Part shown: positions 3,001-46,297 of the stretch, one piece after another
How the letters are laid out: the number at the start of each line of letters is the position of its first letter
How positions within the stretch are numbered: position 1 is the stretch's first letter
Source: Macrostomum lignano
Taxonomy: Eukaryota
NCBI GenBank assembly: GCA_002269645.1
Contig: NIVC01002654.1
Coordinates: forward strand, 57,371 to 103,667
DNA length: 46,297 nt
Reading direction: 5' to 3'
The notes under the pieces: generated by a model
Seen by the model: the letters and a program-made list of their open reading frames with translations, nothing else
Database searches by the model: none
Told to the model about the DNA's origin: nothing
Made by a program: the position numbers and the translations under genes

Positions 3001-3051
3001 ACAGGTAGCATTCTAACAAAAAACTGAACAGTCTTGATCCGCCAAACTCAC

Positions 3052-9306: not shown

Positions 9307-9466
9307 CAGAGAAAGTGGAGCTCAGAAAGACTCGAACTGTTCTGGAATTTTTCTCCGGCAAATCTGACGCAGAGGACAAAAGATCGCCAGACATCAACCG
9401 ACGAAAGACGTTCTGAGACTCGGACTCCAGCAGCAGCGCGGGAATCGCCTGGGTGAATCGCTTCAC
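9307..9466 (-). CDS. NWD1: NWD1-like exon 1 with the start codon (ATG at 9466, or internal ATG at about 9394). Encodes ...RTVRVFLSSTFS-G.
   Basis: ORF 9272..9466. Donor TCTG|GTGAGT at about 9307. VF(I/L)SSTF is the DUF4062 start. Confidence 0.65.
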
Positions 9467-11514
9467 AAGAGCGGGCCTCCGACGGCGTTGCTGTCCTTCG
9501 GTGACGGCGGGTGCCTTCGCAGCGTCGGAGCCCCTTTGTAGAAGACGTGCCCTGTCGAGTTACGATTTAGATAAGGGTGGGGGTTCAATCTGCGATACCG
9601 TAGCTTACAGGGCTTTTCGATCAGTGCCTGTAAAGATTCAAGACCACGCTATGGATACGCTATACACACAATAGATGACTACGTATGCCGTATTTCTGCC
9701 CTGACAATCTGACATTTCTTACTATCAGGAATTCTGCACATTGCTGGGTTTTGGCTCTAGCGATGTATAATCAAATCAAACTACAGCAACCAGGCCAAAA
9801 TCCTGTGAGGTTAACAACAAACTAACTGGCATGAAATCTAACTTGAAAACTTTCCTGGGAAATCTGTGTGATGATTATTTAGTTAATTTAAGTTATTTTC
9901 TAATCCAGTTTGGACGCTAATCTCACCCAGACATCAACTTCGTCCATTTTGAAACTTTTGATTTAGCCGCCGCTGCAGGTGCCACTCGCTGGCTAAGCCG
10001 CTTCAATAATGATGGCCGTCGAGCCATTGGGCCTCCGCTGCTTCCTCCAGTAGTGTGGCCGACCGCGGGAACAGTTGCATCGCCACTTTCCTTTGTCTCT
10101 TCTTCCTGAAGTTTGCATAAGAAAACACCCTTCATTTTAAAGTTTGAACTATATTACTTTATAATATTTAAGAAGCCTTTTAAATTTTCTTTAAATTGAG
10201 GAAAAGTTAAATATATAATATATTTTACTTTTATATTAAAGTAAAAATATTTTACTTGGGAAAATTGTAAGTATATAGACTTCAGATCATAAATATTTGA
10301 TTTGGAAGCCTTTACTTAGCAAACTAGTAATTTAGTCTTTGATTGGTATGCTTTAATGTTTACCTTTTCTGAATGATTTATTGTGAAACTTTTTACTCAA
10401 AAATATACTAATAAAGTTAAAAATCACAACATACAAATAGGAATAGCAGCTTACAAAATTAATTTAATATTAATATTACTATCTTTTTAAATATTTTATT
10501 TAAATATGCTTCTAGAATACAGAAAAGTTATAAAGATACATTATACAAATGATGCATGTTACATGAAAAGGAAATTGTTTGCAGCAAATTTTTATGTCTC
10601 ATATTGCATACAGCATACTGTACAATGAAACTAGGTCTAATATGCCTAATTCAAAAGGCTGTGAAAGTCTGGGAAAGATTGAAAGTTACTTTTACAAGCA
10701 CAAATTTCCAAAACAGCCCAAAAGTTCTGATAAAAATCTGTTAAATTTGAAAAGCTGGAAATTTAATTGCAGGCTTATCAAATTTTAAAATTTAATTTTC
10801 TGGAACCTACGGTTTCTACCCAGGTTAATTTATTAAGTTGAAAAATATGTTTGAAAAATTGCACAGGTGTTTTTTAGGAGTATGAAACGAAAAGTTAACA
10901 TTAATAATTGCCATCTTCCTTATTATTGTATCAGTTTAATTTTGTACCATTACATAGTTAATTTAACTATTAGAAGACTGATATCAAAGGCTTAGTCTCT
11001 TTCAGTCTTTATCAAAGAATGATAGAAATACTTAGGGCTAAGCTTCATCAAACCATAATAACTGCGTAACTCGCAATTAACCTACCAATTATATTGACTT
11101 TTGTGCCCACGTGCATGAGTTTAAGTTTTAAAGCGTATTGGAAACGTAGTCTCCAAGTTTTATATAAATAAAACATAAACAGAAGTTAAGGACATTAAAT
11201 AAAACTTTAGATAAAATTGATTTATTGTGTTATGTTTACTTCAAAATTAACAATTTTTTTCTAATTTGTTTAGCTACGTACAATTATGCGGTATAGCAAC
11301 ATTTTCAAGCAAAGTAAAGTATTATTAAGTAAATAATGCATATAATTGTTCAGTTATATTTACAAATTATATTTTCAAGATTTTTATTTTGTTCCCACTT
11401 TGACTAATATATAAGAAGCAAATAGATGGTTTCTAATTATTTGAATTCGCTTGCACATTACCCTGGAGACTTCCCTTGCCCATGCTATCGATCCAGACAG
11501 CATCAATTTAATGT

Positions 11515-11598: not shown

Positions 11599-12044
11599 AA
11601 CTTAAACACAGGTCAATGGTTGGGCGTTGGCGGAGAAATATTATTTGAGTACATTGTGCGTACAGTGAAAATAGAGAAAATAACTTATGGATGAAACAGG
11701 CGGCTAGCTTAGGCCAACTCATTTTTTCGACACTCCTCCTTTTTCCTACGAATTCGAAAGTCGTGGGAAAGGACAAAAATAATGGTCTGAGGATTGAACC
11801 TCTAAAAAAATCAACGACTGGACTGGCCATCTCACCCGTTCCCAGCGCCGGGAATTCCCAGCACCCGCAACGCGAAGAAGAACCGAACGGATAGCACCAT
11901 CACGGCCAGGACGCACTTCCTCGACAATACCCAATTTCCACTTGAGTCTTGTTGTCGAGCTTCACCTGCCAGAAGAACCACTTCACCAACATTTGGTGAA
12001 CGGTGGTTTAGGTTGATCCTTTAGGGCTTTCTCGAGCAGAAACT

Positions 12045-12758
12045 CTAAGTAGGACGTCTTCCATTGGTTCCAAAACCACCCAGAGCTGCTTTAAGCATTC
12101 TAAGCCGTTTCGGAAGCGGTAGAACGGAGTCCGCCTCACCGTCGATATCTTCCGGTTCTTGGCTGAGACGACTAGCTGCAATTAAATGGGACGGTGTGAT
12201 GACCTCCATACCATCGCCTGAATCCGAAGGTACATGCAACAGCGGCCGACAGTTAACCACAGCTTCGATTTCCACACTTAGAGTATAATCAACTGGTCGT
12301 AGCTGATGCCAATTGTAGCATCCCAGAGGTTTTCCAGTAACCTCCCCACCACGGGGCTCGCTCGGGCACAAAATGCCAACAATTAATCTTCTTCGACGAA
12401 CAGAACGACTGCAGCTCTTCTGAGATATTAGCGCCGAATCACTGACGACGGAGGGAATGCCTCTTCGAGCCACGAACCGACGCAGTGCATGCAGAAGCTG
12501 TTCGCTGTCCATACTCGAAACAACTTCCAGGTGAACGGCTCGAGTTGCTGAGCAAGTGAAGAGCAGGATGTACGCCTTTTTGCTCTCACCACCCTCCCCC
12601 GTCCGATAGAATTTCGGACCATCATAATCCAGTCCTACGGTACGAAAAGCACGAACAGTTGACAGACGGAAGGATGGAAGCTGCAGAACCGCACGCACGG
12701 AAACCGGTCGCCCTTGAAACTTCTTGCACACAACACACCCCGTCAGTAACTGCTTCAC
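12045..12758 (-). pseudogene. BEL/Pao integrase catalytic core. It is fused directly downstream of the gag Zn knuckle, so the element is deleted.
   Basis: ORF 12045..12758. It has an HHCC-like CVVCKKFQGRP followed by D..D..E core motifs typical of Pao integrases. Confidence 0.7.
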
Positions 12759-13060
12759 ACGCTGTCTCGCCTTTAAAATCCAAAAACGTTCACCTTAGGT
12801 GGATATTTTTGACGAGACGCGCCTTGAGCACATATGCTTACGTGATGCTTGCCGGAGCAATCACGGCACTTCTGCGGATCGCGACTCTTCTCTTTTGCTA
12901 GAAATTGTCTACGCCTTTCAACGGTCGGAAACTCCATGCAATTTTCCGAATAATGCGATGCTTTGCAATAGGTTCGTAGCGTCTGGTGCTTTCGGTTGCA
13001 CTGCTACCAGTGTTGATTGATTGATTGCTACCATTGACATTGATGCGTTTGAAGCTTGCT

Positions 13061-13618
13061 TTAAATCTGAATGAGATGCTTGTGAAGTTGACTTGTGGCT
13101 GAGCTGCGATCCAGCGGACTCCCGCACAAAAATTTCATTCTTGTAGTAATGTCGTCGTGAAACTGCTGAAGACACTTTAGAGATGAGTCCTGGAGACGAA
13201 GTTCAGATATCGCCCCCGTGAATGTCGGAATTTGCCTCTTGGGAAGCTTGATCTGCGACCCGGACTCTACGGAACGACTTTTGGCCGCTGACTCCTCCGG
13301 CGATTGTTGACTATTGAAAGTTGCTTCCAGCATCTTGATGCAGCTGGTACACTTCATCGAATAAGCTTGATTCTCTTCCACTTCAGCATCCAGCCCCTCT
13401 TCAGCGACAGACTCCTCTATGGCTTCATCCAATGCTTGCACTGCCGTCAATTTCGACTTCAGAATCTGCACAATTTCCTCCGCATCCGCACGATTTGCAG
13501 CTCGACCAATATCCACGGAGAGAAGATGGTCAGCCTTTCCAACAGCCTTCGTGATCGCCGCGTGGATACCTGTACGCTTCCTGACTGCTGAAGATACCTC
13601 GTCTTCACTGAGAACCAT
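13061..13618 (-). pseudogene. BEL/Pao gag N-terminal region (DUF1759-like).
   Basis: ORF 13061..13618. The LPK..IP.F.G....W motif class is present. Confidence 0.55.
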
Positions 13619-14207
13619 GACGACTTGAATTGGGAGATGCTGCTAAAGCCAAGAAGAACTCCTGACTGAGAACTTGAAGACAGCCAGCCCAAAAAAAAGA
13701 AGCAGACTGCAGGAAAACACTTCGAGTGAACACGAAGACAAGCGAATGCAAAAAATTCAACAACAAAAAACAAGTAAATTTGGTAAGACAAACTCTAAAA
13801 GTCCAGAATTTGAAGAATTTAACGATCAGCTATTAACTATACGTATAACTGTCAATAATGTTAACGAGATGCGCAAAAAAGACGTAATTCAAAAGGAGAA
13901 ACAGTTACGATACTCATCAACGCAAGGACGGTCGACTGTTCGACATCGATCAGAGAGAGCCTGGCTGAAGGTTGCAGCTCGTGGAACCCGAGGGACCGGA
14001 ATACCGTTGACGGGACCACCGCTGCAGCGATCCGGAGGCCGCGAGCTGCTGCTTACTCTGACGACTGCGCTTCGCCGAAAGCCAACATAGTAGCCCCGTG
14101 CAGAGCGCAACAGTTGGAGAAATATCGCTGCGCTAGAGATTCAGTGCAGTTGCACTAACTTGAGCTTCTGAAGGCCGCAATAGTTTTAACTAGTATGTTG
14201 TACTTTT

Positions 14208-16406: not shown

Positions 16407-19404
<2,998 letters not shown>

Positions 19405-20215
19405 CTAACGGACTCGCCCCTGACTGTTAAAGCGGTCTCTTTATCTGTGCATGAGCGAGCCTTGCAACTCTCTCTCCCACTCTATTTTGCTCAGCCCAAT
19501 GTCTCCCGTCCCTGACCCCAGCTCTACCAATGCCGAGCACTACACATAAGCGATACTGCAGTGTGTAGCCCAGTCTGCCCCAGCACACACTCAGGCAAGC
19601 GCTTATCGATATAATATATGAATATCTTACACAGCTAATCCACGCCCACAGATCTACTTAATGGACTCTTATCGATTGAATTTTTATCCAACCCAGCAAC
19701 ACCTGCAGCACCCCCAATTTCTTCTCCAATATAAAATTGTGCATCCAAAGTCCAAGCTATACTACTGCTCAACTGGTCATAGCCTAGCTATCAAATGAGA
19801 ACAGTTTCAAAAAAATCCCAAACCCAACTACAAAAATCCCCCCCCCGCGTGTGGGCGGAAATGCGCCATTAGCACTGTCTCCCACTGCACTGACATAAAC
19901 AAAAACGCTACGTCAAAACTACTCGTACTTATTGCTGAAAATCGCTGAGTAGTGCGATTGTGTATTAATAGTAAAATTAATGTGCTTTAGTGATTAATAA
20001 ATATTTCATTTTATTTAAAGACTTTAGAGCTACTGAGTCATGATTAGTAGTATAAAAAAATCTGAAATATAAAAACAATAGTAGGGCCTACTCAACAAAC
20101 ATCGGTAATAACAAATAGAATCGGGATAAAAGTTGAAAATTATTTCTAGAATAAGACTTTGGGGGCAGGGTCCTGCAAATATTCAACTTTTACTTCACAT
20201 GGCAAACTTAGTAAA

Positions 20216-20221
20216 TTTATT
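20216..20221 (-). terminator. AATAAA polyadenylation signal about 120 nt downstream of the stop at 20339.
   Basis: Plus-strand tttatt. Its position relative to the stop is appropriate. Confidence 0.4.
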
Positions 20222-20338
20222 CGAGCAAAACAAAACTAAGACTGCGTCAAATTTAAACATGAAGATAAATATAATCAGTTTATCAATTATATAAAGTCTG
20301 TTTTCGATACATATCGGCACACAGGGCTCAATCGCTAA

Positions 20339-21873
<1,535 letters not shown>

Positions 21874-32585: not shown

Positions 32586-32906
32586 GTTTTATTTTTCGCC
32601 GTTTCATTTTTTTAGCAGCCTCGGTTGGTTTGACAGCTTTTTCGGCCTCTGGTGAAGGGCCACGTCCGCCGCGTAGACGCATCACCAGGTGAACGGTGCA
32701 GCCCGGCGTCAGCCCTGCACTGGCAACAGTCCAGTCTGATTCCAGCTGCTTTCCGTCAGCAACTAAACGAATCTGATCCACTGGGATGCGCTGCCGTTCG
32801 CTTATTGCCTCCTTGAGCTCAAGAATATTTTGATTGGGCGTAAGGCTAACTGTGAACTCTTCGCTAGTGAGCGTTCTCACTTTGACGGTGAATTTAGATG
32901 GAAGAG
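32586..32906 (-). CDS. Ubiquitin-like domain exon (KFTVKVRTLTSEEFTVSLTPNQNILELKEAISERQRIPVDQIRLVADGKQLESDWTVASAGLTPGCTVHLVMRLRGG plus a basic KKMKRRKIK tail), phase 1-1. Spliced downstream of the PARP4-like C-terminal exons.
   Basis: ORF 31600..32880 extended upstream to acceptor cattccgcag|CT (about 32906), matching the phase-1 donor of the exon at 32998-33199. Beta-grasp pattern and C-terminal RLRGG. Candidate donor AAAC|GTGAGA at about 32586. Confidence 0.6.
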
Positions 32907-32997
32907 CTGCGGAATGAACAGGCTATTTCTGTACAATTTTTTGTCTAAATAAAAAATCTAACAAGCAATAACATCGAAAAAAAAATCTCAGACTCAC

Positions 32998-33199
32998 ATT
33001 TAGCATCAGCTTGCCGCATTTGTGCGGCTTTCCGATTCTGTTTAACAGACAGCACCACCGGGTGCTTGTCGTGAACGCCGGCCAAAAGCAGCGAAGCTTC
33101 CAGATCGTCAAACAGCCGAAGAGCTTCTTCGCTCTTTCCGGTGTTTGACAACTCCTGACCATCAATGATACCGTCGGCAATTTGCGCGAGAATTTCCGC
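32998..33199 (-). CDS. PARP4: PARP4-like exon 15 (AEILAQIADGIIDGQELSNTGKSEEALRLFDDLEASLLLAGVHDKHPVVLSVKQNRKAAQMRQADAK).
   Basis: Acceptor ttttttag|GCG and donor AAAT|GTGAGT. Phase 0-1. Confidence 0.6.
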
Positions 33200-33367
33200 C
33201 TAAAAAATTTAGACGAGTCATTATGAGAGTAACTATCCATATTGAGTTCTTTTTAATTCTGCGTCATTATAAAGTTTACTTTACGAGAAGGAAAAATGCC
33301 TCGTCAACTCCTTCCTTATAAAGAGGTAAAAAATTGGGACAAATGCCTCGTCATCTAACAAACTCAC

Positions 33368-33484
33368 AAGCCCGTCGCCAGCCTCCTTGATCGGTTCCCA
33401 GCCCTGTGTGGCTAAGATATCAACCTTCTCGTCGTCTAGCAAAGTTTGCAATCGGCCAGTCATGTCCGATTCAAATTTTTCGTC
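33368..33484 (-). CDS. PARP4: PARP4-like exon 14 (DEKFESDMTGRLQTLLDDEKVDILATQGWEPIKEAGDGL; compare human ...EDVDFLPYMSWQGEP...).
   Basis: Acceptor tttctgacag|GAC and donor CTT|GTGAGT. Confidence 0.65.
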
Positions 33485-33603
33485 CTGTCAGAAATAGATA
33501 GCATTTACAATTAGTATATAACAATACCGGTCAGACAAACCTTAGAGATTTAGTATATTGTGAAAGTGTGCTACTATATCATAAGGATAACGATTTCATC
33601 TAC

Positions 33604-33705
33604 CTTTTCACGATCCTCAACCGCTACGAAGCTGGTAAATTGGCAAGCCACTGAGTAGCGAATCGATAATTGAACCAGGTTGGCCTTCTGCTCCAGTCGC
33701 TTCAG
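33604..33705 (-). CDS. PARP4: PARP4-like exon 13 (LKRLEQKANLVQLSIRYSVACQFTSFVAVEDREK; compare human LKSLIIKLSKENSLITQFTSFVAVEKRDE).
   Basis: Acceptor tttacag|CTG and donor AAG|GTAGAT. Phase 0-0. Confidence 0.7.
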
Positions 33706-34060
33706 CTGTAAATTTGATTGGGTTTGCTAATTTGTCACCTTTGAAATCTCAAATGAGTATACCTATTTTTATAGCTCTCTACCAATACGTTTATTGTGAA
33801 CCTAATACGAGAATAACTTCAGTGGTGAACGCATCTGACTTTCGCACCAAAGACCCCAGGTTCGATTATGTGCGCGACCGCACATCACGCCAACAACACA
33901 AGAGCCAACCACGGGGGTCAGAACTGCTTGGCTCTTTAAATGACTGCATGTCGCCATGAGTTGCGACAGTTTCTCAAGTCAGAACTTCATTTATATTAAA
34001 TCATCTTTTCTTAGAAACTCTCCGATTTAACTCTACCGACTTTTCCGACTTTTTAGTTAC

Positions 34061-34757
34061 CTGATGCAGAGCCGGATCGGTATCCAAGCTGCCAGCCTCC
34101 CAGTCGGCAATGAGGCTCCTAGCAGCCAGGGCGTGCACCATGGAGCCGGTGGTAAAGCATAGCTCGCTAGTGAACACCGTGCAGCTGACTCGACAGTCGC
34201 CAGCTTTGGCATGCAGTGTCGCTCGTTGACATCCGCGACCTTCGCGCGGCATCAAGCCATAGACAATCAAGCGCTGACCGTTGAACAGAGCCGACGGACA
34301 AGCAGGCGCTTGGCGCACTACAGACAACTCCTGACTGTCACTGTTGTCATCATCGTCGTCAAGATGCCACTCAACGCTGAGCTCGGTAAGCGCCGGCGCG
34401 GTGAGCCGAGCAATCAGCTCGTCGGCCAATGCAGACCATTTTGAACGTCTGGCCGGGTCGAAAAATTCCACGGAACCGCCGGAACCGGCAGCTCCGGCCA
34501 GCGATCGGAGCCGGTGCCGGTCTGGCGAGGGTCCAACCGAGCAGGCCAGCAAACGCAGGTGCTTGTTAGCACCTGAAGCGGCGACAGCCAGTGTAGCCTC
34601 TTTCGCTTCGTAGTGTCCGTCAGAAATCAGCAGCACCGCGTGCGGTCCGAATTCGCGCAGTTGAGCCAGGTAAGCCAGGTAATTAGAAAGATTTGTGCCA
34701 CCCATATTGGGTTTTGAGGCTCGGATGAATTCTAGACAGCGATTCTGGACGCTTTTC
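34061..34757 (-). CDS. PARP4: PARP4-like exon 12: second half of the VWA domain plus the post-VWA region (GGTNLSNYL...LLISDGH...FNGQRLIVYGLM...HALAARSLIADWEAG).
   Basis: ORF 34001..34705. Acceptor ttttccag|G at about 34757 and donor CAG|GTAACT at about 34061. Strong similarity to human PARP4/VWA5A. Confidence 0.8.
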
Positions 34758-35294
34758 CTGGAAAATTTATAACTCGTGAAGTCAGCAAATGGAATTTTTG
34801 CAGTTTAAAAGACACCAAGAACGAAAATTTAAATGCACCTTTTTAATAGATGCAGTGAACACTATATTAACGAAAAATGGTCCTTTTAGAAAAAATGCTA
34901 TATGCTATTTAAAAATGGTACGCTTGAATGTTAAACTCGGAGTTTACAACATTTGACCGCCGACCCAATAGCCCAGACCCTAATCTGAATTGTCGGCAGT
35001 CAGGATTGTCTTTTTACCACATATTTAAAGAAATCTAGTTACTTTATAGCGCAAATTTAAAATGAATTTTATCAGATATCAAGAGTCTTTACTGTTTACT
35101 CTTTATGTACTCTTTAACGTATTGTACTTCCTGCTTTCAAAGCAAACAGAGATCGGTCTTAATGATTGTGGGAAGTATAGTTTCAAATGTCGGTTTTTCG
35201 TTTACAAAATACAAGGTCAAAACACAATATTTTTAGATTTATCAAAGAAAGTTGCTTCCAAGACAGAAACTATAGTGTAAAAAAGGAGTGAAAG

Positions 35295-35490
35295 AGGGGG
35301 GGGGCGTAGCCCAGTGGTCTAACGCAGCGGTCTGATGTGTCAGCGGCCCATGCTCGAGTTCAAGTGCAGTCACATTTATTTTAGGGCTCAATTGAAATCT
35401 CGGCTTGGCTCTGCTCGTGCAATTAACGCCCTTGAGGCCCAACCCCCGAAGCACAGTGAACTTACATGCCTAACGATAAATAAAGATAAT
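35295..35490 (+). mobile_element. tRNA-derived SINE copy 2 (about 195 bp, 3'-truncated relative to copy 1). It is intronic and abuts the exon-11 splice donor.
   Basis: A G9 run, then GCGTAGCCCAGTGGTCTAACGCAGCGG...GCTCGAGTTCAAGTGCAG, then a body shared with copy 1. Confidence 0.65.
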
Positions 35491-35496
35491 TCTCAC

Positions 35497-35891
35497 CTGC
35501 CGACCGGCTGTGGCAGCGCAAAGCAATCCTCGAACTGCGATCCGAACCGAGCCACGTTGACTCGAGTCCGCGCCGGCAGATGCCGCAACAGCAGCGCCGC
35601 CAGCCGCCTGGCGTCCACGCTTGGCTCGCCAGCCATTGAGCGGCTGCAATCTAACGCCAGGGTGACAACTCCGGAGCAATCCGAGGACGCTGACGATTCG
35701 AACTCTGGGTAGAAGCACACCATCAGAGCGTCGGGACCGCTGGATTGCAGCGAGTCGTCGGGCCGTTCGACCCACAGTCGGGGCGCGTTTATCTCGGCTA
35801 GGGACACCTCGAGGCGGAAGCCAAGCTCGCCGAGAGTCTGCTGTTGGCCCGGTGCCAGGCGAACAACCGAACAGGTCTCCGTGCGCTTCAC
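35497..35891 (-). CDS. PARP4: PARP4-like exon 11: end of VIT plus the start of VWA (VVTLALDCSRSMAG MIDAS motif).
   Basis: ORF 35493..35891. Acceptor tgcaaacag|GTG and donor GGCAG|GTGAGA (phase 2). Confidence 0.8.
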
Positions 35892-36039
35892 CTGTTTGCA
35901 GCATTCAGAAACTCACAGTTCTAGTTGCGCTAGAGCTCAGTTATTTAAACTTATACTAGTAGCATTCATATTGATTTTTAGTTACTTTTTCCAACACCTC
36001 TACCAACTAACGACAACAAAAATGAATCTCCCTGTCCCC

Positions 36040-36620
36040 CACTCTCTCCCTATCCCTCCCCCACTCTCTCCCTATCCTTCCCCCACTCTCTCCCTATCCT
36101 TCCCCCACTCTCTCCCTATCCCCCCCCACTCTCTCCCTATCCCTCCCCCACTCTCTCCCTATCCCTCCCCACTCTCTCCCTATCCTTCCCCCACTCTCTC
36201 CCTATCCCTCCCCCACTCTCTCCCTATCCTTCCCCCACTCTCTCCCTATCCCTCCCCACTCTCTCCCTATCCTTCCTCCACTCTCTCACCATCCCTCCCC
36301 ACTCTCTCCCTATCCTTCCCCACTCTCTCCCTATCCCTCTCCCACTCTCTCCCTATCCCTCTCCCACTCTCTCCCTATCCCTCTCCCACTCTCTCCCTAT
36401 CCCTCCCCACTCTCTCCCTATCCCTCTCTCTCCCTATCCCTCTCCCACTCTCATCCCTCTCCCACTCTCTCCCTATCCCTCCCCACTCTCATCCCCTCTC
36501 TCTCCCTATCCTTATCTACTCTCATCCCTCTCCTCCCTATTTTCAGCACTCTCACCCCTCTCTTCTCCTATCCCTCCCCCACAATCATCCCTTTCTCCCT
36601 GTCCATCACCCTCTCACCCC
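36040..36620. repeat. CT-rich minisatellite, about 21-22-bp unit (CTCTCCCTATCCCTCCCCCACT). Intronic. A further CT-rich low-complexity block lies at 37330-37480.
   Basis: Tandem periodicity. Confidence 0.9.
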
Positions 36621-36731
36621 TCTAACTCCGCATCCATCACCCTCTCACCCGCCCTGTGCTTCTCGCTCTTTTTTGCTAACAACTTTTTGCGCAGATTTGT
36701 AAAAAGCACCTGAAAAGTTTAAAATTTAAAC

Positions 36732-37235
36732 CTGAATCTCATGCGTTGGTGATATTAATCCCCTGATAGGATATGGCATCCTCAGACCGGCCTCCAGACT
36801 GAAAGCTCCAACTGGTCGTCTCACGGCGGCCGTGTCTGTCACCTGCTGCAGGCTGTCATCAGCCGCTGAGGCCGTCTGCCAGGGCGCCGCGCTGCCGGGC
36901 AAGCCGAAGATCACCGCCTCGCCGCTTGGCTTCAACTCGCAGACGTAGCGAATTTTAATCAAAGCCGCCGTCCTTGCCGGCAGGTTGCCAATGGAAACGG
37001 TGAACACGTCGGGACTTTCGGCGGCCTGCTCCATCAGGTAGGCGCCTTTGCCGGCTGACACGGCTTCGCGATACTCGCGCCTGGCTTTCTCCTTCTCCTT
37101 GACAACTCCGACTACTCGTTTGGCGCCGATGTAGGCTTCGAAACCGCACACCGCGGCGCCTTCGCTCAGGGGAAACACGTAGCGAGCCTCCACAGGTGAG
37201 CTGCCAGTGTTGAAGAACTCTTGGAGCAGGACCAC
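36732..37235 (-). CDS. PARP4: PARP4-like exon 10: VIT domain (ARYVFPLSEGAAVCGFEAYIGAKRVVGVVKEKEKARREYREAV...DVFTVSIGNLPARTAALIKIRYVCEL).
   Basis: ORF 36726..37277. Acceptor ccgcccag|GTG and donor CAG|GTTTAA. Near-colinear with the human PARP4 VIT domain. Confidence 0.8.
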
Positions 37236-37717
37236 CTGGGCGGTTGCAGAGAGAGGGAGGGGTGCAGGGGTCCGCAAACTCCGGCCCGCAAAGCCTCTCT
37301 ATCCGGCCCTCGGTTCTTTGAAACTTCACAATAGCAATCCAACCCGATCAAGGTTTGAGTCTCTTCTCAGGTCTCTCTCTCCCCCCTCTTCTACCTTTTC
37401 TCTTCTCTCCGCTCCGCTTCTCTCTACTCATCTCCCTTCTCTTCTCGTTCGTCTTCCCTCTCCTTGTTCCCTTCAATTCTATCATATCATCTGACCTGCA
37501 GTAATGATCAAAACTCTTCATCTGGCGATTAGAAACTGAGGGCCGATGTACACCTGTGTGAGCCTGCGTACAGTATCCGCAGGAGTCAGGGGCGATGGCT
37601 GCAGGCCAGTGTCACCGATTGCGTTGGATAATTGTTTATTATTCCTCAATGTTGCCACAACCTTTTCTACACTTATTATCCAACTGTCAAAACTGTGGCT
37701 AAAATATTTTTTATTCT

Positions 37718-38318
37718 TACCTGAGCCACCAAGTCCACCAGGTTGGCGCGCACGTGCACCGAACGCAACGGCATTGGAGGTCCGCCCGAGTCGCTTAGCA
37801 ACCCAAACTTTTGATCCGCAATTCGAATATTCAACTCCAGATCGGTCAAATCCTCCACCTCGTCGTCTGATTCTTCATCATCAGGGATGCTGCACTGTTC
37901 CATCGTTGCCAGATTATCCATAGGCCGATCGCCGTCCAAATAGAACTCCACAATGTACTCGAGCTTCTGCTGGGCCGAATCAAACACTGCGAACTCGCGA
38001 TCGCTGAAGCCATTGTCATCATCAGCGTTGTTGGCTCCCGTCGAGATTGGAATCGACTCGACGCTCTGACAGTCAGCGGAGGTTGGTGAGCAGGCGGCGG
38101 CAGGCAGCGGCTGAGACACCCGCTGCACCCGGCCCAGGGCGACCGAGCACACCAGAGCCACGCGGCAGCCCAGGCCGGAGCCGTCGGCGCGGGGAGGCTC
38201 CGAATATTTGGCGGCCACCTCGATGTTGTCGGCGAAGTAGATCCCGCGGCCGAGCTTGCCTGCGTGTCGGCGGTGCAGCAGCTGCTGGCCGGCTGGCAGG
38301 CGAGGCGGCAGGAGGCCT
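37718..38318 (-). CDS. PARP4: PARP4-like exon 9: second half of the PARP catalytic domain (GRGIYFAD...EFAVFDSAQQKLEYIVEF) plus the start of VIT.
   Basis: ORF 37676..38335. Acceptor cctcgcag|A completes AGA with the AG left by exon 8. Donor CAG|GTAAGA. Confidence 0.8.
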
Positions 38319-38399
38319 CTGCGAGGGGTTATCATTCAGGATTTTAGGGACTCAAGACGGAGTTTGGTAGAGAGCTAAAAGCGCTGTACAAGAGCGCTA

Positions 38400-38465
38400 A
38401 GATAGACAGACAGACACACAGACACACAGACAGACACACACAGACAAACAGACAGACAGACACAC

Positions 38466-38554
<89 letters not shown>

Positions 38555-38575
38555 TAGACAGACAGACAGACAGAC

Positions 38576-38672
<97 letters not shown>

Positions 38673-38683
38673 CTAAGACACTA

Positions 38684-38724
<41 letters not shown>

Positions 38725-38735
38725 CTAAGACACTA

Positions 38736-38776
<41 letters not shown>

Positions 38777-38851
38777 CTCTGACAGACAGACAGACACACA
38801 GACAGACAGACACACACACAGACAGACAGACAGACAGGCAGACAGACAGGC

Positions 38852-38919
<68 letters not shown>

Positions 38920-38930
38920 TGACTGACAGA
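38400..38930. repeat. (GACA)n microsatellite with CACA/TAGACA variants, in the intron between PARP4-like exons 8 and 9.
   Basis: Direct observation. Same motif and orientation as 20790-21640. Confidence 0.95.
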
Positions 38931-39013
38931 CAGAATCCCAACACTGTTGTGAATGCAGGGGAGCGCTTCAAACTATCTATTACTACAAGCAGTACCGCCA
39001 GGCGCCATCTCAC

Positions 39014-39303
39014 CTAGACAAAATGCCCACCAGATTCCTGCCAGACGAGCCATGAAACAGCAGCCGCACGTTTCCCAAATCTCGTCGAAAAACGGCGGCC
39101 TCTTCGCGTCGACCGACGGAGAAAATCCGGCGAACATTGGCGCCGGAGCCGATGCTGGATTCGTCGATTAATCGACGAACGACGGCCTCCTCGTCTGGGT
39201 CGGCCCGCTGGACAAATGCTTTGAGTGCGCGGCGCTTCACCGAGGCTGGGGGTGACGGGCGCCAATTCGAGGCCTCCGTCACAGATAGAAGGTCGCGCAT
39301 CAG
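39014..39303 (-). CDS. PARP4: PARP4-like exon 8: PARP catalytic H-G-S region ([38 protein letters not shown]).
   Basis: ORF 39010..39342. Acceptor ctttctcccag|CTG and donor AG|GTGAGA. Aligns with human VFRVGRVNETTEFLSKLGNVRPLLHGSPVQNIVGILCRGL. Confidence 0.8.
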
Positions 39304-39339
39304 CTGGGAGAAAGTCGATTGATTGATCGGGGATTCACT

Positions 39340-39770
39340 CATTAGTTGATTGGTTGAATGACTGACTGTCTGACTGATTGAATGTTGATTGATTGATTGA
39401 TTGATTGATTGACTGATTGAATGTTGATTGATTGATTGATTGATTGACTGATTGAATGTTGATTGATTGATTGATGGATTGACTGATTGAATGTTGATTG
39501 ATTGATTGATTGATTGACTGATTGAATGTTGATTGATTGATTGATGGATTGACTGATTGAATGTTGATTGATTGATTGATGGATTGACTGATTGAATGTT
39601 GATTGATTGATTGATTGACTAACTTATTGAATGTTGATTGACTGATTGACTGTTTGAATGTTGATTGATTGATGGATTGATTGACTTATTGTTGATTGTT
39701 TGACTGATTACTTGATTGACTGATTGATATTAACGGTTTGATTGATTGATTGATTGATTGGTTTATTTCT
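39340..39770. repeat. GATT/GACT-rich degenerate microsatellite with about 58-bp higher-order periodicity.
   Basis: Tandem periodicity. Confidence 0.85.
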
Positions 39771-40195
39771 TGATTAACAGGTGCCAGTATTATTATGTAG
39801 CCATTAGCGAATATACATGTAGAAGGGATATGTATTGGTTTAAAAGTGATAAAAACCAAAGGCTAGAAGACTGGTTTTTACCATTTTTATTGTTTTTTTC
39901 TTTACTTTGCATTAGACACTTGAATACTACAATTCTAACTCTTTATAGATGCCATAAAATCATAAAAGCTCGATGCTTCATACTAAATAATAAGTAAGTA
40001 GCTTATTATATTCTTTTCTTACAGCAGGGCACCTAAATGCACAAATCAGAGTGATTAGTGTACATAGTTTAGGTGCACAGAGTATCCTTTTAATAAAAAT
40101 ACAAATCAATTAAACTGATATACAATTATTCTTAGGCGATCATACTGCACTACTGTCAGTAAGCGAATATGGAAATAGATAATAAAATCGCCTAC

Positions 40196-40369
40196 CAAGC
40201 AGACATCTGCGGCCAATCCGAATTTATAAGCCGAGTCCAGGCACCCGCCGCCACCGCTGCCGCATTTCAAAGCCGATTGAAACTGCTGGCAGAGCGAGTG
40301 CGAGTGATAATCCGGCTTGCCTGCGCTCTGCTGCTGGTACTGCATCAGGACGCCTTCGGCTAGGTCCAC
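40196..40369 (-). CDS. PARP4: PARP4-like exon 7 (PARP helical/regulatory domain: VDLAEGVLMQ...FGLAADVCL).
   Basis: ORF 40106..40402. Acceptor cacccgacag|GTG and donor TTG|GTAGGC. The junction ADVCL|LMRDLLSV aligns to human ADLCQLIRDMVNV. Confidence 0.65.
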
Positions 40370-40429
40370 CTGTCGGGTGTGTTGCAGTTTTATTCGCCAC
40401 ATATAACTTTTTTATACTTATAAGCCACT

Positions 40430-40560
40430 CTCTTCAGCACTCGACTAAAGCGTGCAACCCTCTCCAAGTATTTAACTAAAGCGTGCAACCCTCTCCAAGT
40501 ATTTAACTAAAGCGTGCAACCCTCTCCAACACTTAATTAAAGCGTGCAACCCTCTGCAGT
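40430..40560. repeat. About 37-bp tandem repeat, 4 copies (TAACTAAAGCGTGCAACCCTCTCCAAGTATT).
   Basis: Direct observation. Confidence 0.85.
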
Positions 40561-40645
40561 ACTTGGTCTAATGCACGCAAGCGTACTAAGCCCACACAAA
40601 TAATGTACAGATTTATTTAAAAAGTACACAAAAAACTTTGCTTAC

Positions 40646-40816
40646 ATCGTCAATGGTGCAGCTCCGGCTCTGCATCAGGTGGCCCAGCCAACCCTTGCCA
40701 CCCGCGCCTATGCTTTGAGAGGCTTGGCCCAGGAATTCCAGAGCCTCCTGCCAGCAGGCCTCAACGAACTGGTCTTCGCCGGAGTTCAACAGGCTGGGAG
40801 CAACTTGAGTCAGCGC
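40646..40816 (-). CDS. PARP4: PARP4-like exon 6 (ALTQVAPSLLNSGEDQFVEACWQEALEFLGQ...; compare human IWAEALGHLEH).
   Basis: Acceptor ccaacactcgcag|GCG and donor GAT|GTAAGC. 171 nt, phase 0-0. Confidence 0.6.
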
Positions 40817-40919
40817 CTGCGAGTGTTGGCCGGTATGGGATCGGGTATTGTGAGGAGTTTTTGCCTCACTGATGTCTCACTGCTCTCTCCACACACTGGC
40901 ATCTGTCCGCATTTCACAC

Positions 40920-41440
40920 ACTACATGCTGCAGTCTTCCCACATGCTGCAGTCTCCCCACCCGTTGCAGTCTTCCCACCCGTTGCAGTCTTCCCACACGC
41001 TGAGGTCTCCCCACACGCTGAGGTCTCCCTACACGCTGCAGTCTCCCCACCGGTTGCAGTCTTCCCACACGCTGCAGTCTTCCCACACGCTGCAGTCTCC
41101 CCACCCGTTGCAGTCTTCCCACACGCTGAGGTCTCCCCACACACTGAGATCTCCCAACACACTGCAGTCTCCCCACACACTGAGGTCTCCCCACACGCTG
41201 ACGTCTCCCCACACGCTGCAGTCTCCCCACCCGTTGCAGTCTTCCCACCCGCTGCAGTCTTCCCACACGCTGCAGTCTCCCCACACGCTGAGGTCTCCCC
41301 ACACACTGAGATCTCCAAACACACTGAGATCTCCCAACACACTGAGATCTCCCAACACACTGCAGTCTCCCCACACGCTGAGGTCTCCCCACCTGTTGCA
41401 GTCTCCCCACACGCTGGAGTCTGTCTACATGCTGCAGTCT
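40920..41440. repeat. Minisatellite, 18-bp unit (CACGCTGCAGTCTCCCCA), about 29 copies. Intronic.
   Basis: Tandem periodicity. Long ORFs on both strands are artefacts. Confidence 0.95.
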
Positions 41441-41510
41441 TCATACAGAAGTCCCACCGCACCACATCGTGGGTTCCCACGCCCAAGCCCCATCCCATAC
41501 GCTAACTAAC

Positions 41511-41714
41511 CTCTCTAAGCTGGTTCGAGCAGGATCGGAACAGCGAAACTGGCAGGTCTCGGACGCGACTCAGCGGACACCATTTAGTCGAAGCAGGAGC
41601 TGAAGTCGTCGGCCCCAGACTGCCGCCGCTACCGTACGAATCGGACAGATGAGCCAGCACATTCAGCGCGTTGGGAGCGTCCGGTATCACCCGCATGGAC
41701 ACGGGAACAAAGAC
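41511..41714 (-). CDS. PARP4: PARP4-like exon 5 (VFVPVSMRVIPDAPNALNVLAHLSDSYGSGGSLGPTTS...).
   Basis: ORF 41502..41780. Acceptor tatctcgcag|GTC and donor GAG|GTTAGT. Confidence 0.55.
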
Positions 41715-41935
41715 CTGCGAGATATGATAATAATCAAAATAGTAACTATAATAGTAATTAATTAGGATGCAGTACAGCAAAAGTACAAATGTACTTCAAG
41801 CTTAATGTTCGAACTAAAATACACGTGCGCCCTAAATTATTCTAAGTACATTTAGCTTAAAAGTACAAACGCACATAGAAAGTGCATGTGTACTTTTAGA
41901 AAAATTAATAACTAAAAGAACCAATCGATACCTAC

Positions 41936-42022
41936 CTCGCTTCCCTTGCTAGCATAGACAATGTACTGATTCTGTCCATCTATTTCGCCCGTGTACAGCT
42001 CCAACAGGCTGTAAGTCGCATT
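41936..42022 (-). CDS. PARP4: PARP4-like exon 4 (NATYSLLELYTGEIDGQNQYIVYASKGSE).
   Basis: Acceptor tatttcag|AAT and donor GAG|GTAGGT. 87 nt. Confidence 0.5.
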
Positions 42023-42101
42023 CTGAAATAATGAAATTCAATTCATAAATATAATTGTAGTTCACAGAGCAAGGTAGAGCTTCTAACAAATCTCTGCTGA
42101 C

Positions 42102-42223
42102 CTTGACAAAAATGGCGAACCGCAGCAGCTCGAATCGATCTGTTGGCGGTGATATCTTACTCGCCTCCGGAAAGTTGCTAACGTTTTGAACTCGAAATGA
42201 CGGCGTGTCCGATTTCTCGGGCA
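42102..42223 (-). CDS. PARP4: PARP4-like exon 3 (V-PEKSDTPSFRVQNVSNFPEASKISPPTDRFELLRFAIFVK).
   Basis: ORF 41949..42251. Acceptor ttctatcag|TG (phase 1, matching the BRCT-exon donor). Donor AAG|GTCAGC. Confidence 0.55.
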
Positions 42224-42597
42224 CTGATAGAATATTAAAATAGGCTTCCATTGCGAAATTTGAAAAAAGTGTTTAGAAAAAGACACGGCAAGTTTCCTTT
42301 ATTTTAACTGTATCCAAAAATTGATCCCTAAGTGCCGTTTTTATAAACGTGTGTCCAAGAGGGCCGTTCTATGAAAGTGTCACCAAAGGGGCCGTTTTAT
42401 AGAAGTGTCCCCAAAAGGAACGTTTATAATATTGTCGCCAAGGGGAAGTTTTTAATTTAAAAAATCAACTCCGATAAGGAACCTCTGAAGCCTAAATGAT
42501 ATGAATCATTCAGTATTACATTTGAAATCTCAAATCAAAAATAGTCTATAACCAAAAGACGAGTTCTCCCTAGACAAAATTGCTTCTGGTGACTCAC

Positions 42598-42793
42598 CCC
42601 TAACGGCTCCTTTCTCAAACAGTTCGCTGGCCGATTTTCCAGCCGCCAGGAATTCGTCAGTTCCAATCGGACGACCAGCGGCTAAGCAGGCGTCGAGAAA
42701 TCCGATTCGAACCACGGGCTTGCCAAGGCTGAGCGCCTGTCGAACTTTTGAGCACTGCAGGTCGACACCGTCGGATACCAGTAGGTAGTCAAT
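42598..42793 (-). CDS. PARP4: PARP4-like exon 2: BRCT domain (IDYLLVSDGVDLQCSKVRQALSLGKPVVRIGFLDACLAAGRPIG...).
   Basis: ORF 42530..42877. Strong acceptor ttttccctgccttctactcaccag|ATT at about 42793. Donor AGGG|GTGAGT (phase 1). Confidence 0.7.
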
Positions 42794-42844
42794 CTGGTGA
42801 GTAGAAGGCAGGGAAAATCTGTTCAGCACTTTGATTCCCAACCC

Positions 42845-43260
42845 TGCCAGCCAATCAGCGCACTGTCTTGTGTACACTGGCTGAGCCTTATCTAATATTA
42901 GCCAGCCAATCAGCGCACTGCTTGGTGTACACTGTCTGAACCTTATCTAATATCAGCCAGCCAATCAGTGCACTGCTTGGTGTACACTGGCTGAGCCTTA
43001 TCTAATATCAGCCAGCCAATCAGCGCACGGCTTGGTGTACACTGGCTGAGACTTATCTAATCTCAGCCAGCCAATGAGTGCACTGCCTGGTGTACACTGG
43101 CTGAGCCTTATCTAATCTCAGCCAGCCAATGAGTGCACTGCCTGGTGTACACTGGCTGAGCCTTATCTAATCTCAGCCAGCCAATGAGTGCACTGCTTGG
43201 TGTACACTGGCTGAGCCTTATCTGATCTCAGCCAGCCAATCAGCGCACTGCCTAGTTTAC
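42845..43260. repeat. 55-bp tandem repeat, about 7.5 copies (GCCAGCCAATCAGCGCACTGCTTGGTGTACACTGGCTGAGCCTTATCTAATATCA). Each unit carries a CCAAT-box-like AGCCAATCAG. It lies in the first intron of the PARP4-like gene.
   Basis: Direct observation. Confidence 0.9.
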
Positions 43261-43302
43261 ACTGTCTGAAACATTCCATATTATAATACCACAGCGAATT
43301 AC

Positions 43303-43572
43303 CTTCCTAGTGACAATGCAGGACACAATGCCGCCATTGGTCATGATTAATCGTCGATAATTCTGCTTGTCTTTGGGCCGAACGCCGCTGTCCAACAATA
43401 GCGCGAATTGAAGGCTATTCAGTGGACCAGACGCTTGCAAAGGTGGAGCCTGAGCAGTTGAAGCAGTAGCCTCACCTGAGACTGAGCTGGGCACGCCAAT
43501 ATTCTTGAGTGTTGGGAACAAGATTAAGAGGCTAATAGTTAATTTGAGCATTCTCATTGGATAGATATCCAA
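43303..43572 (-). CDS. PARP4: PARP4-like 5' exon (...LQFALLLDSGVRPKDKQNYRRLIMTNGGIVSCIVTRK; compare human FCLKVKYLPQQQKKKLQTDIKENGGKFSFSLNPQ). The start codon is not resolved.
   Basis: ORF 43252..43572. Donor AAG|GTAATT at about 43303. The upstream limit is uncertain. Confidence 0.5.
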
Positions 43573-46297
43573 ATAAAGGTAACTGAAAATAATTCTCTCA
43601 CCAGCGATAGAGGAAGAGGCTTTGCAGCAGAACTAATGCTTGGCTTGGTCAGCGAGTGCAACTTTGCTGTTGATGGAAGCAGAGATGGCAATGCATATAT
43701 ACTAGGAAATTTTAAATTTCATAATAAACCAGACTATTCTAAAGAGAGATTTAGGGCCCAACAGTTTGGGATATTTTTAGCCAATCCTACAAAACAGCCA
43801 ATGCTTTAGTGTTGCGTGGTTGCAAAATTGTAAGTAATATTAATAATATCTTACTTGACTGCATTTGTGGCTGGCATTTTGACAAGGCAGACATAACTAG
43901 CTTTGTTGAGTTGTTGTCAGCGCCAATCACTGGCTTTGGTTTTGAAGCATCCTTTCTAATTGAAGACACCTGCAGCTCTGTGGCCTGATTAGACTTAAAA
44001 GTGTCATGGCTTTGGGTTGTTGTAGGAGCCAGAAATTGGAAAACTGGATGCAATTCAGGCATGGTTGTGGAATAACATTTGCATGCAAATATTTTGGACA
44101 CTTGCTATGAGCTTATAATATTATAGGCCAACTAATTATATTTGTTAATTATTAATGCTATTAAGTTACTTAGTTGCATGGGGGTTGCAGCTTGGCATAC
44201 TTGGCTTAAAGCAAAATTGTTACATAGCTAGCAAGGAATTCCAAATTAGTCCTCTACTTGTTCTTCTATATTGGTATTATATTCAGATTATTTCAAATAT
44301 ACTCAACATTTATTATCAACAACATTGAAAGTCATTGTAAAAATTATTCAACATACACAGTTATTATAAGTTATATAGATAATCCAGCCAAAAAAATATA
44401 TTATTTATGTTTTTTTGATTTTACCTAACTTTTCACTTAAGTCATATTGTCTAAAATGCAAGGCATTATTTAAAAGTGAGGTAGTTATTTAATTCCTAAT
44501 TATTTTTATTTCTCTTGGATAAAGCACCCATTAATAAATGATTAAGAATTCTTTACAGCAATTTTTTACTATTGACAACATATAATATATTTGAATGATT
44601 GATCATTCTTCTATTATTGTTTGATTATATTTAAAAATAGTTTAATAATATGGGTAAATAATAATTCATAAAATTGGGAGACATTTTTTTAAGTTAAAAA
44701 TAATGATTTAATAGCCTATGGCAATGACTCAATAAGAAAGTTGCAAGTGTATAAGAATATAATAAGATCCCTTAAACAAAGTTTGTCCCAAAAAACTATA
44801 TAGTTGTGATTATATTACTCTAGTAGGTAAAAACAATTTAAAAACTTGAATATTGAAAAAAAATCGTCTATGGGTGCTGATTTGCAGAAAATGTAGCAAT
44901 ATTAATAGGCCTATAACGTACTTGCGAACAATGTCATTATGTCAATAAAGATACTTAAATAAAACAGTGAAGCAACAAGGCATTTAAAGATACTAAACTT
45001 AAAAAAATGAATTAGGAAGAACCATAGGATCTAGAGTGGACTAAAAATAAGTTGTAATAACGCGAAAGCAGTTCTTTGCATTAAGGAAGAAGTAAGAACC
45101 GAGGAAAGGAACCAATCCTGGTTAGAAAAAAGGATTATGAAATCATGCCCTCAATAACAATAGCAGCCAATGTATACACTTTTTGCTTCCTAACTAAAAT
45201 TAAAGTTTTTTTTAAACGAATATTGCATATATTTTTCGCCCGTAACCTGTTATTTCCAGAGAGAAACTGGTATATCTACACAAGTGACTAATCAAAACGC
45301 AATCTGAAACTTATAGATCCTCGCCGGGATATCCTGGAAATTGGACATTTCAAATTTTAGATGAAATATTTTTATACCAATGTAGTAAAAACTTGGCGCA
45401 CTTTTAAATTTCATATACTTTTTTGTTCAGGCTAAAGTATTTGTTTTCAATAAGAAAAAATAACTTTTAAAAATGTTTTTTATTTGTTGAGATGGTGAGT
45501 TCTCTTTTTTAAAAAGCATTCTTTGTTCCCGGAAATAGAATTCGTCGGTCGGTCCAAGGCGCAAGTTAGTTAGCAACATATGTGTTCTGGTGTTAGACAT
45601 GTCACCTTTTTAGTAGTCGTAGTTAATTTAGCAGCATATGAGTAATATATCACTTAGTAAATCGCTTTTTTTAAGTGGCTAGAGTTTTTTATTATTGTTA
45701 AAAAATCATGCGTCACCTCACATGTCATAATTGATTTCTATTCTATAAATAACCATGCCTAACAATCCTAACATGCATGCTTCGCATGTTCAGTTTTTGG
45801 AAATAGGCCATAGGTCTAGCCTACTTCAGTAATAATAGTGTTATTTATAATTAGTAAAAATGTATAGAAAATTCCTAAATACAATGTCAATGTGGTTTGG
45901 TGTATTCATACATATTTGTAAGCTAATTTAGGCCTACCAAATTAATTTACTAAAGAAATAAGTATTTATTGAACATTGCAAGAATTATAGGGATTTAGGA
46001 TTCTAGGAATTTAAGAATAAACTATCTACTTTGCTTAGGCCCTAAATCTAATGTTGCTAAGAGTAAAGTATACACTGCAAAAATGCCAAATAGGGGCCTT
46101 AATTTAAAAAAATATTGATATCTAAAAACAACAAATAAATGAATTAGACCTAATTCTAAGCAAATCAATATTGATAAATACTACCTAATTTTTATATCCT
46201 AATAAAATACTTCACTAAAACCTACCAACATATGCTAGGAGCATATATTGATATATGCTCTATTCTTTGCTCTATTTGACGCATTTATAGACCTATA

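Follow-up and report, generated by a model that had tools for sequence, protein, structure and literature searches.

A ubiquitin-like exon lies in frame within the PARP4 gene of the flatworm Macrostomum lignano, a candidate cassette in the linker of a vault enzyme

Introduction

Vault particles are known to house a single enzyme, PARP4, whose function is poorly understood. Here we describe a minus-strand gene of Macrostomum lignano which, judged by its sequence, is the PARP4 (vault PARP, clade 5A) orthologue of this flatworm, and an exon encoding a ubiquitin-like (UBL) domain that lies within it. The window (the whole stretch of DNA that was analyzed) is 46,297 nucleotides long (GenBank assembly GCA_002269645.1, contig NIVC01002654.1, positions 57,371 to 103,667), and coordinates below are positions in the window.

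Vertebrate PARP4 proteins (clade 5A) have the order BRCT, WGR, helical domain (HD), ADP-ribosyltransferase (ART), ITIH-like region (VIT and vWA), disordered linker and MVPID/MINT domain (PMC2964712, PMC10450202, PMC12280208). The C-terminal MINT/MVPID domain docks PARP4 inside the vault (PMC12280208, PMC10450202). In primate PARP4, the disordered linker between the ITIH-like region and MVPID was earlier suggested as a proteolytic cleavage site that alters vault association (Suskiewicz et al., PMC10450202). The predicted flatworm protein resembles vertebrate PARP4 in its order of BRCT, H-Y-E catalytic domain, VIT, vWA and TSFVAVE block. Its linker is likewise long, and its C-terminal helical domain likewise has SLG and LELGxxW motifs. 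Unlike vertebrate PARP4, its linker bears a ubiquitin-type exon, an actin N-terminal fragment and a segment like the Hsp70 substrate-binding domain (SBD). PARP_reg is also undetected by Pfam, and Thr occupies the column of the MVP-contacting Arg.

Ubiquitin-fusion precursors include polyubiquitin, Ub-eL40, Ub-eS31 and FUBI-eS30, as well as the Ub-actin and Ub-P1 fusions reported from chlorarachniophytes, and deubiquitinases cut them after Gly76. The flatworm domain is similar in that it ends RLRGG in line with the following polypeptide, with a residue other than proline next. As in Ub-actin, an actin-like sequence follows, here 27 residues after the UBL. Unlike these precursors, the flatworm UBL is internal (about 1353 residues precede it) and only 39% identical to ubiquitin, so it is not a canonical ubiquitin fusion, and its processing is something we infer.

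In Sde2-type proteins and in pestivirus polyproteins with cellular ubiquitin insertions, a di-glycine module is a built-in deubiquitinase cut site that frees functional halves. The same idea of a built-in cut is proposed here for flatworm PARP4. Only the ubiquitin fold is homologous between it and Sde2 or the cytopathic pestiviruses, and the protein context differs. To our knowledge, UBL domains that are embedded and never cut normally lose the C-terminal di-glycine. As in parkin, RAD23, BAG1 and UHRF1, the beta-grasp domain of the flatworm protein is one part of a multidomain protein and has its hydrophobic patch kept. Unlike the domains of those proteins, which have no processing-competent Gly-Gly, it retains RLRGG in full.

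Other links between PARPs and ubiquitin have been described, including UIMs in PARP10, UBCc or RWD domains in clade 6 and in PARP6/8, and U-box PARPs in Dictyostelium (PMC2964712, PMC10450202). All of these modules bind ubiquitin or resemble E2 or E3 enzymes; ubiquitin itself is not among them, nor does any of them occur in clade 5. We found no report in the literature of any PARP, PARP4 included, that carries ubiquitin itself. M. lignano is a free-living flatworm with a genome rich in tandem repeats, duplicated blocks and spliced-leader (SL) trans-splicing (PMC5730564). Our preferred reading, to which we give a probability of roughly 45%, is that the UBL open reading frame (ORF) may be a genuine lineage-specific cassette exon of PARP4, plausibly cleavable by deubiquitinases and serving as a splice-selectable proteolytic hinge.

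Position, Frame and Splice Signals of the UBL Exon

Exon boundaries were set by mapping public proteins to the DNA with exact GT-AG splicing, and two boundaries of public models were corrected. Exons 1-15 (43503 to 32998) make up 4060 nt, are stop-free and leave in phase 1. From the exon-15 donor onward, exons were joined by a small dynamic-programming (DP) program that uses codon usage and splice sites and was trained on the upstream exons. This chainer takes up the UBL exon unprompted, then an actin-like exon, and ends at the stop at 20339, past the PARP4 C-terminal domain. After manual refinement of the DP chain, the gene has 32 exons and 2422 codons, is frame-consistent and closes with the stop codon 20341-20339. 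The UBL exon and its surroundings are as follows.

32906-32586, minus strand: candidate UBL cassette exon (exon 16 of about 32), 321 nt or 107 codons, phase 1 in and phase 1 out
32892-32665, minus strand: ubiquitin-type domain of the UBL exon, ending RLRGG (GG codons 32670-32665)
32664-32586, minus strand: basic tail of the UBL exon, RGPSPEAEKAVKPTEAAKKMKRRKIK, including KKMKRRKIK, disordered in the AlphaFold (AF2) prediction
32997-32907, minus strand: intron between exon 15 and the UBL exon, 91 nt, AT-rich (GC 0.31), with an in-frame TAG six codons before the acceptor
32538-31634, minus strand: 24-nt tandem repeat of about 38 copies, filling 905 nt of the 1015-nt intron after the UBL exon and open in several frames

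The UBL exon is on the same strand as PARP4 and lies between two PARP4 exons, with both splice sites in the single compatible phase. It is entered at an acceptor (ttccgcag, then CT) and left at a GT donor (AAAC, then GTGAGA). The two sites score 6.8 and 8.4, and the trusted cis-splice sites of the gene range from 3.6 to 13.7. Only the required frame is open; the other two hold 7 and 6 stops. The codon score of the exon is positive, even with the exon kept out of the training set. GC content is 0.51 in the exon and 0.31 and 0.36 in its flanks, and it changes exactly at both predicted boundaries. The upstream intron is typical in length, as introns of the gene that have no tandem repeat range from 79 to 182 nt. 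If the donor is ignored, the naive UBL ORF continues for 434 codons because the 24-nt repeat beyond it is open in several frames.

The gene model thereby places the UBL well inside the gene, within the linker that separates the VIT/vWA module from the C-terminal vault-docking domain. Since the exon is phase 1/1 like its neighbors, its inclusion or skipping would leave the frame unchanged. The original prediction had drawn junctions at 33368/33199, 32998/32906 and 32586 with the UBL exon in frame, and these coincide with the splice sites that we derived. It had also set the UBL last, after the C-terminal region of the protein, which has to be given up: 32586 is a 5' splice site without a stop, and the gene runs on to 20339. 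The alternative that it offered, a fusion with a neighboring transcript, is not supported: the flanking exons are PARP4 on either side, the UBL exon has neither an in-frame ATG ahead of the domain nor a stop behind it, and the SL ATG would be out of frame.

In M. lignano, polycistronic precursors of the SL-trans-spliced kind make up about 7% of transcripts. The UBL exon could in principle belong to such a transcript, or to a separate one that is nested or made from an alternative promoter. The species often uses trans-splicing and multi-gene transcriptional units (PMC5730564, PMC8629364), and the next exon (31570) starts with an in-frame ATG, where a trans-spliced downstream product is conceivable. 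An AATAAA is also present in the UBL exon (32593-32588, minus strand), within Lys and Ile codons at the exon end and before the donor. A separate transcript is nevertheless very improbable, given that the UBL has no in-frame ATG ahead of it and an in-frame stop lies just upstream of its acceptor. No gene overlapping the exon was found on the plus strand. Use of the AATAAA at 32593 as a 3' end is unlikely, as it would yield a non-stop mRNA; the signal is probably coincidental because no stop codon precedes it. Translation of the UBL alone from the SL ATG (...TTGCATG, PMC8629364) was considered and rejected, as this ATG is in another frame and meets a stop after 10 codons.

Fold, Selection and Predicted Processing of the UBL Domain

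The predicted UBL domain was borne out by a match to PF00240 along the whole profile (positions 1-72 of 72; E = 1.5e-17; 63.6 bits, where the cut-off is 25.4), and the predicted RLRGG and basic tail are in the translation. In the PDB, solved chains of ubiquitin, NEDD8 and ISG15 match at about 1e-13. In a single-sequence AF2 model, pLDDT is about 80-89 across residues 1-78 and the tail is disordered. The best Foldseek match of this model is ubiquitin, with a TM score of 0.95 and an rmsd of 1.0 A over 76 residues. With its predicted beta-grasp profile, RLRGG and R72, the UBL has the tested features of modifier-type (type 1) members of the ubiquitin family.

The UBL is identical to ubiquitin at 30 of 76 positions (39.5%). 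Buried positions are still I, L, V, F or M at 16 of 17 sites, compared with 8/59 elsewhere (Fisher p = 1e-9). The last 11 residues (TVHLVMRLRGG) are identical to ubiquitin at nine positions, compared with 21/65 for the rest (p = 0.003). Ubiquitin positions that are kept include L8, V44 (I44 in ubiquitin), H68, V70, R42, K27, K48 and R72, while the lysines K6, K11, K29, K33 and K63 are lost. Neutral drift was simulated by letting a ubiquitin coding sequence (CDS) diverge as far as the UBL has. The frame stayed open in 10% of runs, at least 16 core hydrophobic residues were kept in 0.7%, and both held in 0.04% (P = 0.0004). Indels were ignored, so the test is conservative. The substitution pattern is that of a domain maintained for its fold and its C-terminal tail, which points to past purifying selection. 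An origin from Ub-eS31 (RPS27A) was considered because the HMMER alignment reaches into the basic tail, but this was rejected as evidence, since the similarity of the tail is not significant (shuffle p = 0.24).

The C-terminus of the domain reads VHLVMRLRGG followed by R (32694-32662), so the residue after Gly-Gly is Arg and not Pro. Because RLRGG is kept together with the L8/V44/H68/V70 patch and R72, and Arg rather than Pro comes next, a deubiquitinase cut would be expected, as in ubiquitin-fusion precursors. Once the exon is included, there is a better than even chance that the translated UBL would act as an in-line ubiquitin cleaved after Gly-Gly. The cut would fall at the bond between codons 32667-32665 and 32664-32662. 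The N-terminal product would be the BRCT-ART-VIT-vWA catalytic half, ending in a ubiquitin-like Gly-Gly. The C-terminal product would comprise the actin-like, acidic, Hsp70-like and vault-docking parts, with the basic KKMKRRKIK stretch at its start. If the cassette exon is included in some PARP4 mRNAs and skipped in others with the frame unchanged, splicing would choose between a vault-tethered and a releasable enzyme. It is conceivable, and highly unlikely, that the C-terminal Gly-Gly of the freed enzyme is activated by E1, E2 and E3 enzymes, and that the ADP-ribosyltransferase itself is ligated onto targets like a giant ubiquitin.

Among the readings that accept a real exon, the main rival is that the exon is translated and the UBL stays uncleaved, as an integral docking module of the kind seen in parkin, RAD23 and BAG-type UBL proteins. 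Such a UBL could recruit ubiquitin-binding partners or the proteasome, and KKMKRRKIK could add a nuclear-localization-like signal to the isoform. The coding, in-frame evidence for the exon applies equally to this reading, and the I44-type patch (L8, V44, H68, V70) is kept. The domain is also far from either terminus, like integral UBLs, and its basic tail is predicted to be disordered. The tail is where this reading meets difficulty: integral UBLs normally lose the di-glycine, and here the end of the domain is its best-conserved part (9/11 against 32%), with R72-G76 kept and a non-proline residue next. An uncleaved UBL is rather unlikely in our view.

Representation of the Exon in Public Models and Other Species

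Several results weigh against a cleavable cassette exon of PARP4. The three public models that cross this region, at three loci (A0A1I8HY60, A0A1I8J8J5 and the paralogue A0A1I8ICP7), all go straight from exon 15 to exon 17 and on into further acidic exons. When 1.84 billion representative proteins were searched exhaustively, the search found nothing nearer to the UBL than about 40-43% identity, which is the level of ubiquitin itself. The top matches with the UBL in that search were all polyubiquitin-like multi-domain proteins. A junction-spanning search returned only a UBL-less M. lignano model plus actins, and the exon is in no predicted protein. Seven PARP4 orthologue models have no LRGG motif and no ubiquitin Pfam match. 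In the 18.5-kb PARP4 locus of Clavelina lepadiformis, tblastn with the UBL exon and with ubiquitin gave no UBL-like DNA, only noise at E <= 10. The UBL is thus foreign to these other PARP4 genes, as had been supposed for vertebrate PARP4, and cross-species conservation lends the exon no support. Cleavage after Gly-Gly is itself pure inference, and at 39% identity, recognition by a deubiquitinase or an E1 would not be guaranteed.

The main rival overall is that the ORF is unused today, as a relic (a ubiquitin-derived insertion in the intron that was exonized, and was either used formerly or never fixed), and that the mRNA joins exon 15 to exon 17. The three public models that skip the exon fit this reading. 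So do the absence of the exon from every protein in a 15-billion-sequence collection, the absence of the UBL from other PARP4s and the Clavelina locus, and the inserted repeats that fill the introns of the gene. A relic does not readily account for an intact frame of 107 codons with fold-specific substitutions, which has P of about 4e-4 under neutral drift. Nor does it account for good splice sites in the sole fitting phase, a typical 91-nt intron upstream and exon-like GC edges. The public models are, moreover, clearly wrong in conserved regions. They leave out conserved blocks of the VIT region that are present in every orthologue, split one gene into three overlapping fragments and contain fusions to neighbors, so their choice of exons is weak evidence. 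We consider an unused ORF doubtful. As read from the DNA, the exon is likely to be spliced into at least some mRNAs.

A0A1I8FKX2 (P0012) is named "Ubiquitin-like domain-containing protein" in UniProt and was examined as a candidate. It is a paralogous fragment whose 254-aa sequence starts at the actin-like exon and has no UBL, and it lends the exon no support despite its name.

Enzymatic Half of the Gene

The best database matches of the minus-strand gene are M. lignano "Poly [ADP-ribose] polymerase" models, with 84-95% overall identity to a rough concatenation of the coding segments. The top three are A0A1I8HY60, A0A1I8ICP7 and A0A1I8HZR9. Mapped back onto the window by tblastn, the flatworm models have about 100% identity in most exons. 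The next-best matches, at 35-40% identity, are PARP4 proteins of Saccoglossus, Acanthaster, lamprey, blenny, Clavelina, toad and Watersipora. The tested features that define PARP4 are present in the predicted protein: BRCT, ART with H-Y-E, VIT, vWA and a C-terminal MVPID homologue. The exons upstream of the UBL are as follows.

43503-43303, 42793-42598, 42223-42102, 42022-41936, 41714-41511, 40816-40646 and 40369-40196, minus strand: PARP4 exons 1-7, BRCT and PARP1-like helical region, from spliced mapping of public model P0003
39303-39014 and 38318-37721, minus strand: exons 8-9, ADP-ribosyltransferase catalytic domain, from Pfam PARP and exon mapping
37235-36732, 35891-35497 and 34757-34061, minus strand: exons 10-12, VIT and vWA (ITIH-like) module, from Pfam and revised boundaries
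33705-33604 (TSFVAVE), 33484-33368 and 33199-32998, minus strand: exons 13-15, end of the ITIH-like region and start of the linker, from mapping and alignment to six PARP4 orthologues

At the 5' end, the ORF has its earliest in-frame ATG at 43557; in public model P0003 it is entered through an acceptor at 43503 instead. BRCT is detected by Pfam (PF00533, E = 2.1e-7, model residues 25-104). The WGR and helical regulatory domains have motif-level resemblance only (FVEACWQEALEFLG). PARP_reg does not reach E <= 0.01 with Pfam in the flatworm protein, although it does in Acanthaster and Bufo. The PARP catalytic domain is strongly matched (PF00644, E = 4.5e-23, residues 440-607), and its H-Y-E motifs LLFHGS, GIYFAD and DREF align with RLLFHAS, GIYFAD and DDEY of orthologues. 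Exons 10-12 carry VIT (1.4e-34), VWA_3 (5.2e-12) and VWA (1.4e-6), and the MIDAS-type DxSxS motif is DCSRS. The revised exon 10 regains conserved residues that public models P0001 and P0247 leave out, including the block MPYPIRGLISPTHEIQ, which matches EMPFDIRNLESPTHEI in orthologues. Across exons 13-15, TSFVA, V-D and W are invariant in the alignment with the six orthologues.

A PARP4-like gene on the minus strand had been proposed from the DNA alone, and it agrees with the database matches and with the Pfam BRCT, PARP, VIT and VWA_3 domains. The motifs cited for it (TNGG, HGS within LLFHGS, GIYFAD, DCSRS and TSFVAVE) are all in the spliced translation. The proposed count of sixteen exons to TSFVAVE is too high: we count 13 (43503 to 33604), or 15 before the UBL exon. 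The gene was also said to continue with three exons past the last PARP4-homologous ones, with matching phases. The UBL exon is indeed frame-matched, but the two exons before it are themselves PARP4-homologous: 33484-33368 falls on a V-D...W block that is invariant in all PARP4 orthologues, and 33199-32998 aligns loosely with a helical segment of the invertebrate ones.

Linker and Vault Anchor

Past the UBL exon, the gene has 16 further exons with about 960 codons over about 12 kb.

31570-31310, minus strand: exon 17, acidic stretch and a fragment from the actin N-terminus with its D-loop block; phase 1 at both ends; shared with public models P0001, P0002 and P0247
30069-29950, 29852-29781, 29676-29587, 27830-27738, 27642-27592 and 27490-27392, minus strand: first part of exons 18-29, acidic, internally duplicated, probably disordered linker; phase 1/phase 1
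26115-25969, 25070-25020, 24889-24788, 24125-24000, 23817-23665 and 22963-22820, minus strand: remainder of exons 18-29, from the DP chain and manual refinement
22716-21962 and 21843-21651, minus strand: exons 30-31, Hsp70 SBD-like segment and helical segment, identical to A0A1I8HA83 (P0231)
20769-20339, minus strand: last exon, homologous to the C-terminal domain through which PARP4 interacts with MVP (MINT/MVPID); SLG and (R)LELGxxW motifs present

Exon 17 matches actin at E of about 1e-8. It is identical to beta-actin (about residues 1-60) at 33 of 57 positions, and its D-loop is almost perfect. A corresponding actin fragment is found at the equivalent place in Clavelina lepadiformis PARP4, within one 2-kb exon (L001 13107-15116). 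The flatworm and Clavelina fragments are as similar to actin as they are to each other. No actin fragment is in the six PARP4 models of Acanthaster, Saccoglossus, Watersipora, lamprey, blenny and toad. The fragment could be an ancient feature of PARP4 or the result of two independent captures, and it might be a mimic that binds the actin cleft.

Exons 18-29 are supported by the mapping of P0001 as far as 27363 and by A0A1I8HA83 (P0231), which is 100% identical from 23817 onward. Some of these exons may be optional. The linker exons from 33199 to 22716 (minus strand) are all bounded by phase-1 introns, an architecture that would allow free exon shuffling or skipping. Within the linker, an acidic EEDDxDFGxSLFDEAPPSA..FAAPI unit and an ERDIDAAIS unit each occur three times. 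Nearly every long intron between 20804 and 43269 is filled by a tandem array with a period of 4-55 nt and a length of up to 1.1 kb. These arrays are open in several frames and create long spurious ORFs.

The Hsp70-like segment in exon 22716-21962 matches PF00012 (E = 4.8e-13, profile positions 379-521). Its nearest matches outside Macrostomum are bacterial HscA proteins at 29-38% identity. The other PARP4 models lack it, and tblastn with it against the Clavelina locus gave only noise (E <= 10). The last exon aligns with a profile of six PARP4 C-termini at an hhalign probability of 94% (E = 1.4e-7). SLG does not vary among the seven sequences, and neither do the L, G and W of LELGxxW. At the column of the conserved Arg that contacts MVP (R1689 in the human protein), M. 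lignano has Thr, directly preceded by an Arg. A0A1I8HA83 (P0231) reproduces the last five exons at 100% and then wrongly reads on into an MFS transporter gene.

Neighboring Genes

The 3' fragment of PARP4 is fused to the downstream MFS transporter gene in both A0A1I8HA83 and A0A1I8J8I8 (16410-20339, minus strand). In A0A1I8HZR9, the 5' fragment is fused to about 1080 residues of unrelated upstream sequence (43602-44104, minus strand). An NWD1-like STAND NTPase gene lies at about 3000-10150 on the minus strand, with HTH_NWD1 at E = 1e-15 and weak matches to nSTAND1 and NPHP3_N. A long C-terminal ORF without a Pfam match comes next in this gene. At about 11600-13700, also on the minus strand, ORFs resemble retroelement integrase and gag by eye (GLDYDGPKFY...AYILLFTCSATRAVHLEVV); they have no Pfam match at E <= 0.001.

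Implications

The gene model corrects the public annotation, in which PARP4 is represented by three fragments, two of them fused to neighboring genes. If the exon is unused, the finding is an annotation curiosity only. Ubiquitin-, actin- and Hsp70-like pieces share one phase-1 linker, suggesting that the linker of this gene can accumulate bits of abundant housekeeping proteins. If the preferred reading is true, M. lignano would have a natural PARP4 with a cleavable ubiquitin module in its linker, which would make it a test case for regulated vault release. A physical link of this kind between ADP-ribosylation and the ubiquitin system would also be new.

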